DNA of 64,000 nucleotides from an uncultured Acidobacteriota bacterium (GTDB taxonomy: Bacteria > Acidobacteriota > Thermoanaerobaculia > UBA5066 > Gp7-AA6), in the NCBI GenBank assembly GCA_963764715.1, contig CAVXTP010000006.1, forward strand, positions 352,001 through 416,000, given 5' to 3'. A program made the position numbers and the translations under genes. The notes beneath the pieces were generated by a model. The model made no database searches. It was given only the letters and a program-made list of their open reading frames with translations, and was not told the DNA's origin. Shown here one piece after another: positions 14,313-26,580 of this stretch (positions are counted from its first letter, which is position 1; the number at the start of each line of letters is the position of its first letter).

Positions 14313-14336
14313 GTGGCGGAGCCGTCGGGACTCGAA
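14313..14336 (-). repeat. Degenerate copy of the tRNA-Asp 3' end (att-like site)
   Basis: GTGGCGGAGCCGTCGGGACTCGAA versus GTGGCGGGGCCGACGGGACTCGAA (26503-26526): 22/24 identical, same orientation, intergenic. Confidence 0.75.
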
Positions 14337-14517
14337 ATCAGGACCGTCAGCGCGTCGCCGGAGCGCGCTCGAGCAACGCGGGCCAGCCGATGATCAGGTC
14401 GCCACACACGGGGAGATGCACTTGAATCAAGCGGCTCGGGCCGCCCGATTGATCCGATCGCGTCATGCATCGCGGCCGGTAGACGCCGTAGGGTGGTCGT
14501 TTCCGGAGGTATCCGCC

Positions 14518-15669
14518 ATGCAACGTAAACTCCACTCGCTGCCGCTCAGCCTCCTGGCCCTCGTCATCGCGACGCCGGCGCTCTGCGGTCCGTCGAGGCC
14601 CGGCAATCGCGACAAGACGGTCACCGTGATGACCCGGAACCTCTACTACGGCGCGGACCTCGGTCCTGCGATCGGGGCCATCGGCACCGGGGATCCCGAA
14701 GTCATCATCCCCGCCGTCTCCGAGCTGTGGGGAGTCGTGAAGTTCACCGACTTCCCGTCGCGTGCACAGGGGCTGGCCGACGAGATCGAGCAGGTCCAGC
14801 CCGACCTCATCGGGCTCCAGGAGGCCTCGCTCTGGCAAAGCGACCCCTACGACGGGAGCGCCGAGCCCAACGCGGCCCACGTCGAGTACGACTTCGTGCA
14901 GATCCTGATCGACACGCTCGAGGCCCGCGGCCTGCACTACGCGGTCGCCGGCATGGAAATCGGCTTCGACGCGGAGTTCCCGGGCTTCCTCTCCCCGGAG
15001 GACGCCGAGAACGGATTCCTGTCGGACATCCGCCTGACCGACCGGGAGGTCATCCTCGCGCGCGCGGACCTGCGCGCGTCCGAGCTCAAACTGTCGAACC
15101 CCCGAGCCGCCAACTTCGAGACCAACCTGCAGTTCCCCGTCGGCCCCGATCCCGACAGCCCGCTCTTCACCCTCTGGCGCGGCTGGGCCTCCGTGGACGC
15201 CAAGGTCCGGGGGAAGACGTTCCGTTTCGTGACGACCCATCTCGAGGACGAGTCCATCGACGTGCGCAACGCCCAGGCGCTCGAGATTCTCTCCGGCCCC
15301 GCGGACACGGGGCTTCCCGTCGCCCTCGTCCTCGACGCCAACTCCAACGCCAACGCGGATCCCTCGACCGAGGTCTACGCCGCGTTGATTGGGGCCGGGT
15401 TCGTCGATTCGTGGTTCGAGGCGCATCCCGGGTCCGAGATCACGACCTGCTGCAGCGCGCCGGACCTGACCAACGAGGTCTTCCCCGTCGGGACCGACGA
15501 CGAGGGGCGGATCGACCTCGTGCTCTACCGCGACCACTTCGACTTTCGCACCCGGGAGGCGGACCTTCTCGGAGAGGACCCCGTCGACCGGGTCGTCAAC
15601 ACGAGCGGCATCCCGATCTGGCCGACCGACCACGCCGGCCTGTTCGCGACGCTGAAGATCCGCAACTAG
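14518..15669 (+). CDS. Secreted endonuclease/exonuclease/phosphatase family protein
   Basis: Signal peptide, VMTRNL, DLIGLQE, TTHL, DANS, RIDLV, PTDHAG motifs; GGAGG SD. Confidence 0.85.
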   Translation: MQRKLHSLPLSLLALVIATPALCGPSRPGNRDKTVTVMTRNLYYGADLGPAIGAIGTGDPEVIIPAVSELWGVVKFTDFPSRAQGLADEIEQVQPDLIGLQEASLWQSDPYDGSAEPNAAHVEYDFVQILIDTLEARGLHYAVAGMEIGFDAEFPGFLSPEDAENGFLSDIRLTDREVILARADLRASELKLSNPRAANFETNLQFPVGPDPDSPLFTLWRGWASVDAKVRGKTFRFVTTHLEDESIDVRNAQALEILSGPADTGLPVALVLDANSNANADPSTEVYAALIGAGFVDSWFEAHPGSEITTCCSAPDLTNEVFPVGTDDEGRIDLVLYRDHFDFRTREADLLGEDPVDRVVNTSGIPIWPTDHAGLFATLKIRN

Positions 15670-26287: not shown

Positions 26288-26503
26288 GGAACCTCCCGTG
26301 GTTCGTCCGATCCTAGTACCGTCCGGGGCGAGCGGGGTGCGCCTGATCCTCGGTGCTGTCGATGTTTCTGTCCATGTCCTGTCCGTGAACCACGTCTTGC
26401 AAGGCCAACCCTCGCGCGGTTGCGGGAGCGCGGAGGACGTTGCCTAGACTACGAGGGGAAAAGGCCGGGAGCGGCCCCGCCCCGACGCGTGGACTCACCG
26501 TAG

Positions 26504-26580
26504 TGGCGGGGCCGACGGGACTCGAACCCGCGACCTCCGGCGTGACAGGCCGGCGTTCTAACCAACTGAACTACGACCCC
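26504..26580 (-). tRNA. tRNA-Asp (GTC)
   Basis: GGGGTCGTAGTTCAGTTGGTTAGAACGCCGGCCTGTCACGCCGGAGGTCGCGGGTTCGAGTCCCGTCGGCCCCGCCA. Confidence 0.97.

Follow-up and report, generated by a model that had tools for sequence, protein, structure and literature searches.

A tRNA-Asp-anchored variable region in an uncultured Acidobacteriota genome, probably an eroded stack of integrated islands

Tandem islands at tRNA genes and the tRNA-Asp locus

The building of variable regions by repeated integration at one tRNA gene is a mechanism already described in other phyla. In the accessible text on additive flexible genomic islands of Alteromonas (PMC4898812) and Ca. Actinomarinales (PMC7771536), the tRNA position is fixed, the number and kind of cassettes differ from one relative to the next, some cassettes have a partial direct repeat of the tRNA on their downstream side, and metal-resistance and envelope genes belong to the cargo. 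CIMEs and microCIMEs form tandem accretions in Streptococcus salivarius; the accessible part of that report describes CIMEs as integrase-free cargo segments, 1.2-13 kb long and piled up at a single target, which derive from ICEs or IMEs and retain att sites, and microCIMEs as gene-less units of 130-220 bp (PMC7563491). The Islander collection of tDNA islands, in which 125 tandems are catalogued (PMC4383910), demands, according to its accessible text, an integrase in each member and a displaced 3' fragment downstream of the tRNA, in the same orientation, outside coding sequences and 2-200 kb away. For the tycheposon-built islands of Prochlorococcus (bioRxiv 10.1101/2020.12.28.424599), the accessible text of the preprint describes serial integration that pushes older elements inward, persistence of the partial tRNAs of degenerate elements, and a majority of islands without an intact element.

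The locus described here lies in a window of 64,000 nt, the whole stretch of DNA analysed, and was compared with tRNA-Asp loci of related genomes, numbered with the prefix L. As in the additive islands, the tRNA position is equivalent between relatives, cassette content varies and partial tRNA repeats are present; the cassettes shared among the described islands are nearly identical, whereas the cargo common to the window and its relatives is 84-96% identical in protein among the listed loci, and the window also differs in its Acidobacteriota host and in arm-like sites that can be mapped. As in CIMEs, cargo segments lacking integrase, relaxase and conjugation genes are stacked at one target, and one unit in L080, shrunk to 190 nt, is comparable to a microCIME; unlike CIMEs, which keep both att sites, the window has lost its distal arms and retains a proximal one only, and no parent element was found. 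By analogy, the locus would work like a decayed CIME stack. The tRNA with intergenic, same-orientation 3' fragments downstream, within the distance range given there, and the T-loop/T-stem subsite are as in Islander islands, whereas the integrase demanded there is absent: in agreement with the first-pass annotation, none was detected by Pfam in 210 of the 215 window ORFs of at least 90 aa (the other five are cut by the window ends) or by a profile search of the window in six frames. Neither the tycheposon module of an integrase with replication or packaging genes nor any relaxase, conjugation, replication or packaging gene was found among the window's Pfam matches.

In integrons, a repeated sequence connected with recombination lies between the accessory genes of an array, IntI and attC sites are present, and the cassettes are mostly single-gene and co-oriented. 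In contrast, the window has no IntI, its repeats are tRNA fragments and not attC, and its segments are multigene and bidirectional; L037 is nearer to the single-gene layout of integrons than the window is. From the first reading of the sequence, an accretion array anchored at the tRNA had been proposed that might vary the cell surface in an integron-like way. Accretion is supported and integron-like switching of surface proteins is not: variable islands are known to arise in this manner, and the locus does not represent a new integron-like system. The region 10878-26503 is probably an additive genomic island, that is, an eroded stack of tRNA-Asp-targeted islands with CIME-like relics. For an uncultured class of Acidobacteriota, the result locates a hotspot of integration at tRNA-Asp together with a candidate arm motif for the integrase, and gives a sequence-level view of eroding islands that leave surface proteins, a sulfatase and arsenic methylation as cargo. 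A literature search reaching only a minority of subscription journals returned no paper on this locus or on Thermoanaerobaculia SLH proteins, and none on Acidobacteria tRNA-Asp genomic islands with an integrase.

Displaced tRNA-Asp ends and genes of the region

The features of the region and of its two conserved anchors are as follows.

26693-29977: conserved proximal anchor upstream of the tRNA; metallo-beta-lactamase-fold hydrolase and M13 peptidase
26504-26580, minus strand: intact tRNA-Asp(GTC) by ARAGORN and Rfam; putative target of integrations, forming the proximal junction of the stacked islands
26357-26387, minus strand: three 8-nt direct repeats of the CACGGACA type, period 11-12; putative integrase arm sites of the tRNA-proximal junction
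23297-26287, minus strand: surface protein with GloVer repeats, TIG and SLH, 996 aa; cargo of the proximal segment
21926-23263, plus strand: probable lipoprotein alpha/beta-hydrolase (DUF676-like); the start may be 21971
19391-21811, minus strand: arylsulfatase, 806 aa; 90% aa identity in L016 and 84% in L037
19353-19369, minus strand: displaced tRNA-Asp 3' fragment 1 (proximal copy), 17/17; tRNA nt 62-77 plus one base
17047-19203, minus strand: repeat-containing SLH surface protein, 718 aa; 91% aa identity in L016
16607-16948, minus strand: ArsR/SmtB regulator
15730-16554, minus strand: arsenite methyltransferase ArsM; NF008823 above its cut-off
14518-15669, plus strand: EEP-family protein with a signal-like N-terminus; weak PF03372 match, just below cut-off
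14313-14336, minus strand: displaced tRNA-Asp 3' fragment 2 (distal copy), 22/24; tRNA nt 55-77 plus one base
12973-14229, minus strand: 418-aa protein in unnamed Atlas clusters; weak DUF6395/QueC-like leads only
12185-12976, minus strand: nicotianamine-synthase-like SAM-dependent protein, a lead only; Atlas features 0.95-0.98 to clusters with PF03059
about 11958-12149, plus strand: SLH C-terminal remnant with one in-frame stop, facing the tRNA
10878-11885, minus strand: radical SAM/SPASM protein; the variable region ends with this gene
6985-10848: conserved distal anchor; serine hydrolase (beta-lactamase fold), DUF4126 gene and pyridine-nucleotide oxidoreductase

Three tRNAs were found in the window by ARAGORN and by Rfam, and Rfam returned nothing beyond them. 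The two copies of the tRNA-Asp 3' end, noticed at first reading, are real, direct relative to the tRNA and intergenic. Fragment 1, separated from the arylsulfatase stop by a 21-nt spacer, begins just past the T-loop, which is missing entirely, and fragment 2 starts exactly at the 7-nt T-loop. The distal copy had been called the more diverged; this is correct for substitutions, but it is the proximal copy that lost the T-loop and the distal one that retains it. The two copies would represent at least two integrations. No comparable 3' copies of tRNA-Val or tRNA-Met were found in the window. A third region beyond fragment 2 had also been counted: its SLH remnant is present, but it faces the tRNA and no tRNA copy was found on the distal side, so that this region cannot count as a delimited cassette. 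An identical C-to-T change in the acceptor strand is seen at window position 14320 and in fragments of L033 and L072, three independent fragments, and perhaps reflects an older tRNA-Asp allele and not random decay.

The gene labels of the first reading, from the GloVer-TIG-SLH protein through the hydrolase, arylsulfatase, repeat-SLH protein, ArsR and ArsM to the EEP-family protein, were upheld. The two tRNA-delimited segments hold three and four genes in mixed orientations. The GloVer-SLH protein matches TIGR03803 in 13 stretches in addition to SLH and TIG domains, and its matches in the 119 listed loci are to the C-terminal TIG/SLH part only. Homologues of the alpha/beta-hydrolase at 75-78% were found in L031 and L078 among the listed loci, and none of the EEP-family protein among the matches listed from relatives' loci. 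The 418-aa protein is 65-72% identical to a homologue in L026, and Pfam gives no match for the nicotianamine-synthase-like protein. These two genes, also paired in L026, are grouped with the radical SAM/SPASM gene at 10878-14229 and possibly form a small biosynthetic or modification cluster. The GC content is 0.685 in the two segments versus 0.71-0.73 in the adjacent flanks, a small dip, and positions 45001-64000 are equally low (0.687). A promoter/terminator scan gave two promoter-like sites, preceding the tRNA and the radical SAM gene respectively; terminator predictions in the window were no more numerous than in shuffles.

tRNA-Asp loci of related genomes

Relatives were obtained from a genome-collection scan with the whole tRNA-Asp, which gave at least 119 loci, most of them titled Thermoanaerobaculia or Acidobacteriota; for at least 80, flanks of up to 10 kb were included. 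Each species is represented in the collection by a single genome. Genes were called with a home-made caller trained on the window, and several of the assemblies are frameshifted. The loci discussed most closely include L037 (CAWDUQ010000002.1), L103 (CAVXRK010000011.1), L108 (CAWJYL010000002.1) and L034 (JALZAT010000024.1).

In the 119 listed loci, the tRNA 3' 30-mer was found downstream and direct 18 times at a score of at least 18; three controls, each of about 0.58 Mb, gave 0, 0 and 0. At a score of at least 16, which is the score of window fragment 1, the listed loci contain 20 fragments, all intergenic by the gene calls, and the controls gave 1, 0 and 0 matches at score 16, the single match being the T-arm of a neighbouring tRNA as judged from its sequence. 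Four of the 20 fragments, from two NC10 loci with a different repeat structure, were set aside, and the remaining 16 are spread over 10 of the 80 listed long loci. A tyrosine integrase adjoins the tRNA-Asp 3' end in four of these 80 loci; those of L005, L033 and L044 belong to one family and that of L055 is separate. Downstream-direct fragments together with integrases beside the tRNA indicate that tRNA-Asp is an integration target in this class. The integrase hunt in the listed loci ran Pfam on 251 sequences representing the 404 called downstream genes and on the 145 longer frames among 751 uncalled ones, and searched 15,230 six-frame segments with a profile built from 4 sequences; it yielded these four integrases. 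The search for an integrase with this att, suggested at first reading, thus found integrases at tRNA-Asp but none associated with the arm motif described below. In phage and plasmid collections, the junction was matched in its tRNA part only.

A second element family is marked by the first 25 nt after the tRNA, shared by L005, L018, L033, L044, L046 and L084; three members have the related integrase, the cargo of L005 includes helicase/BREX/TerB genes, and L044 carries its integrase with a coupling-protein-like gene and no arm motif. In the NC10/Methylomirabilota loci (L008:9830-10560 and L057, about 4480-5200), tRNA-like repeats in which another hairpin replaces the anticodon arm surround tRNA-Asp, and a small GIY-YIG gene (Pfam match in L057) lies between the repeat copies, unlike att relics.

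The upstream M13/MBL anchor and the distal anchor are common, wholly or partly, to the window and six listed loci. The distal anchor, complete or in part, lies downstream of the tRNA in L016, L077, L060, L026, L040 and L028, and the gene order between the anchors is different in all seven. Common anchors with differing content between them define a variable region of about 10878-26503, broader than first described. The closest of the listed loci is L016, with 80-91% nucleotide identity to the window, a similarity that assigns the window to the Thermoanaerobaculia. It keeps the sulfatase, repeat-SLH, arsR and arsM genes in window order across the site of fragment 1, of which at most a 12/17 trace is present (matched by 249 of 5000 shuffles). 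It lacks the GloVer-SLH gene and the hydrolase, of which a stub of the 5' end is retained, as well as the whole stretch from the EEP to the radical SAM gene, and its deletion breakpoints lie away from both tRNA copies. Gain or loss exactly at the copy boundaries, expected at first reading, is therefore not what this relative displays.

The sister of the window in the M13 peptidase tree is L037 (18 rows, 100/98). There, the sulfatase stop is followed after 95 nt by a longer fragment with an arm pair, compared with the armless 21-nt spacer of the window. Since this L037 junction carries arm and T-loop, deletion is enough to explain the unequal ends of the window copies, and two integrase subfamilies as the cause of their unequal 5' ends were dropped as an explanation. 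No tRNA fragment follows the sulfatase in L001. Four tRNA fragments lie in L037 within 10 kb, 1767-8481 nt after the tRNA and mostly one gene apart; the genes of the units are DUF1254, kinase-WD40, GNAT/DoxX and sulfatase, with three near-perfect arm pairs and no integrase within 10 kb. This is the cleanest case of the gene, arm and fragment pattern. In L030, the order is tRNA, one arm site, one kinase gene, and an arm pair plus fragment. Because the flanks reach at most 10 kb, fragment 2 could be compared only via its neighbours.

Surface-protein genes had been noted as the first cargo of both segments, and integron-like surface variation had been proposed as possible. In the window, two SLH genes do follow the tRNA and fragment 1 in co-orientation. 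Among 74 junctions of listed relatives with a gene called within 700 nt, an SLH gene comes first at four, every one facing the tRNA, and co-oriented at none (0/74), and SLH as the defining cargo was rejected on this count. SLH genes make up 18 of 842 called genes in the listed relatives and occur downstream in 10 versus upstream in 2 of the 80 listed long loci; this excess is modest and among related genomes, and accessory DNA alone may explain it. Kinase-WD40 proteins, hydrolases and transporters are other frequent downstream cargo in relatives.

Part of the cargo is also found on the other side of the tRNA. The arsR-arsM pair is directly upstream of tRNA-Asp in L028, L049, L055, L069 and L080, and downstream in the window (15730-16948), L016 and L077. 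DUF1254, Vgb-repeat SLH and kinase genes lie far upstream of tRNA-Asp in the window (58972-63998), the SLH gene at 60695-62542 being a fourth one outside the array, and in L037 and L055 homologues of these genes come soon after tRNA-Asp. The window as a whole appears to draw on one shuffled accessory pool, and the presence of the same genes (arsRM, DUF1254) upstream of the tRNA indicates that part of the shuffling is unrelated to the tRNA site.

Arm-like repeats, empty sites and the probable history of the region

The first unit of the triple repeat in the window, which had escaped notice at first reading, lies 116 nt after the tRNA CCA end, and the last unit 70 nt before the GloVer start codon. 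Paired 8-nt direct repeats of the same type precede tRNA fragments in L030, L037 and L080, at -92 to -95 relative to the CCA end, and L037 and L080 share about 100 nt of conserved DNA ahead of their fragments. With up to three mismatches, the arm pair precedes 6 of the 16 fragments in the listed loci. With up to one mismatch, 4 of the 118 listed loci that were tested have it after the intact tRNA: at +115 in L103 and L108, at +90 in L034 and at +116 in the window. The background is 0 of 20,000 windows at up to one mismatch. The motif was built from L037 and L080, and a one-base variant was added after other loci were seen; the match in the window is independent of this variant. The first 112 nt after the window tRNA have no detectable kinship to L103 or L108, and the repeats alone match. 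Before the two window fragments, the pair was not found (best 6 and 8 mismatches for fragments 1 and 2), and an nhmmer model of the distal arm gave no site at either copy. The motif is likewise absent near the integrases of L005, L033, L044 and L055, and in no listed locus does a pair stand at both ends of one unit. The mv4 integrase, which targets a tRNA, has, in the accessible text, an attP with paired direct-repeat arm sites at both ends. The repeat pairs are candidate integrase arm sites, and their position before relatives' fragments and after the window tRNA leads to an integrase origin of the tRNA-anchored region, which is well supported.

Empty-site equivalents point in the same direction. 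For 6 of the 16 fragments, the DNA behind the fragment matches sequence found just past an intact tRNA of a different genome, for example L037/L067 (80/101) and L080/L001 (58/70), with local scores of 56-118 in relatives versus at most 29 at the window junctions. Such pairs are the signature of integration into an empty site. The three junctions of the window itself gave no such match among 138 compared. A perfect arm pair without a tRNA fragment is present in L065, 827 nt past the tRNA and just before the gene end that adjoins the tRNA in L028, and is probably a junction with a deleted core.

The most likely history is as follows. Elements with a tyrosine integrase would have recombined at or near the T-loop of tRNA-Asp, and every integration would have rebuilt the tRNA, displacing the old 3' end with its trailing DNA outward. 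Later deletions would then have removed the integrase and most attachment arms, and left surface proteins, sulfatase, hydrolase and arsRM. The window segments would now be immobile relics, comparable to decayed CIMEs, and ongoing change would occur mostly by deletion and homologous block exchange between relatives, with the intact tRNA-Asp presumably open to fresh integrations. For accretion left as relics, one of the two outcomes considered at first reading, the fragment polarity in relatives, integrases at 4 of 80 loci, arm-like repeats, empty sites and common anchors all speak.

The other outcome was mobilisation in trans. In a wider form of it, in trans or in cis, an integrase from another locus or from a newcomer element would still excise and re-integrate non-autonomous cassettes of gene, arm and tRNA core as an integron-like array. 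The four fragments and three arm pairs of L037 with no integrase within 10 kb, the L030 layout and the proximal arm still present in the window fit such movement, and the accessible text on CIMEs documents cis-mobilisation of decayed elements (PMC7563491). It is nevertheless unlikely here: arm pairs flank no unit on both sides, fragment 1 has no T-loop, the window segments comprise three to four genes in both orientations, the L016 breakpoints miss the copies, and the common cargo falls short of near-identity. Intact cassettes mobilisable in trans are unsupported because both window copies are without an arm pair. It is similarly doubtful that this clade uses single-gene modules of gene, attP arm and tRNA-Asp core, best seen in L037 and L030, as a functioning cassette format. 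If it did, an integrase in trans or from a passing element would add, remove and reorder modules, tRNA-Asp would act like the integron attI for kinases, hydrolases and surface proteins, and the window would show an older and partly decayed case. The L037 modules are the remaining novelty; if mobile, they would constitute a cassette system on a tRNA att site instead of attC, and L037 is a better test ground for this format than the window.

If no integrase was involved, the copies would stem from illegitimate recombination guided by the tRNA or from a local duplication that took in the tRNA end and an SLH gene, and the 8-nt repeats upstream of the GloVer gene would be the operator of a regulator. 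The proximity of the repeats to the GloVer start codon suits this explanation, and an 11-nt period also suits response-regulator operators. The co-oriented SLH genes after the tRNA and fragment 1, with SLH-coding DNA about 64% alike, would agree with duplication, but their similarity is confined to the C-terminal SLH part and the spacers past the three junctions are unlike any other junction. In L030, L037 and L080, furthermore, the repeat pair keeps a constant spacing to the fragments that it precedes and comes after stop codons, and fragment 2 starts exactly at the T-loop, which the accessible Islander text gives as a known crossover subsite of tRNA-targeting islands (PMC4383910). An integrase-free origin is therefore very improbable. 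Chance matches in 70% GC DNA can practically be dismissed: the 17-mer at up to three mismatches is only marginally above shuffles (7 window matches versus a mean of 3.0, with 7 reached in 3 of 100), but the 24-mer at the same threshold gives two matches, the tRNA itself and fragment 2, versus 0 in each of 100 shuffles, and the strict fragment polarity in listed relatives and the homologous junction after the L037 sulfatase also argue against chance.

Elsewhere in the window, apparent frameshifts in the serine hydrolase gene (8377-10848) and in a trimethylamine-methyltransferase-family gene (31680-33839) may be sequencing errors. Positions 30080-35981 encode a RACo-like activator, a B12-binding protein and two MTTB methyltransferases (corrinoid-dependent demethylation), a cluster absent between the same neighbours in L016 and L037. 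After tRNA-Met, a fatty-acid hydroxylase-family gene, a ketosynthase, an acyl carrier protein and a type III PKS at 53548-58069 form a possible alkylresorcinol or specialised lipid cluster.
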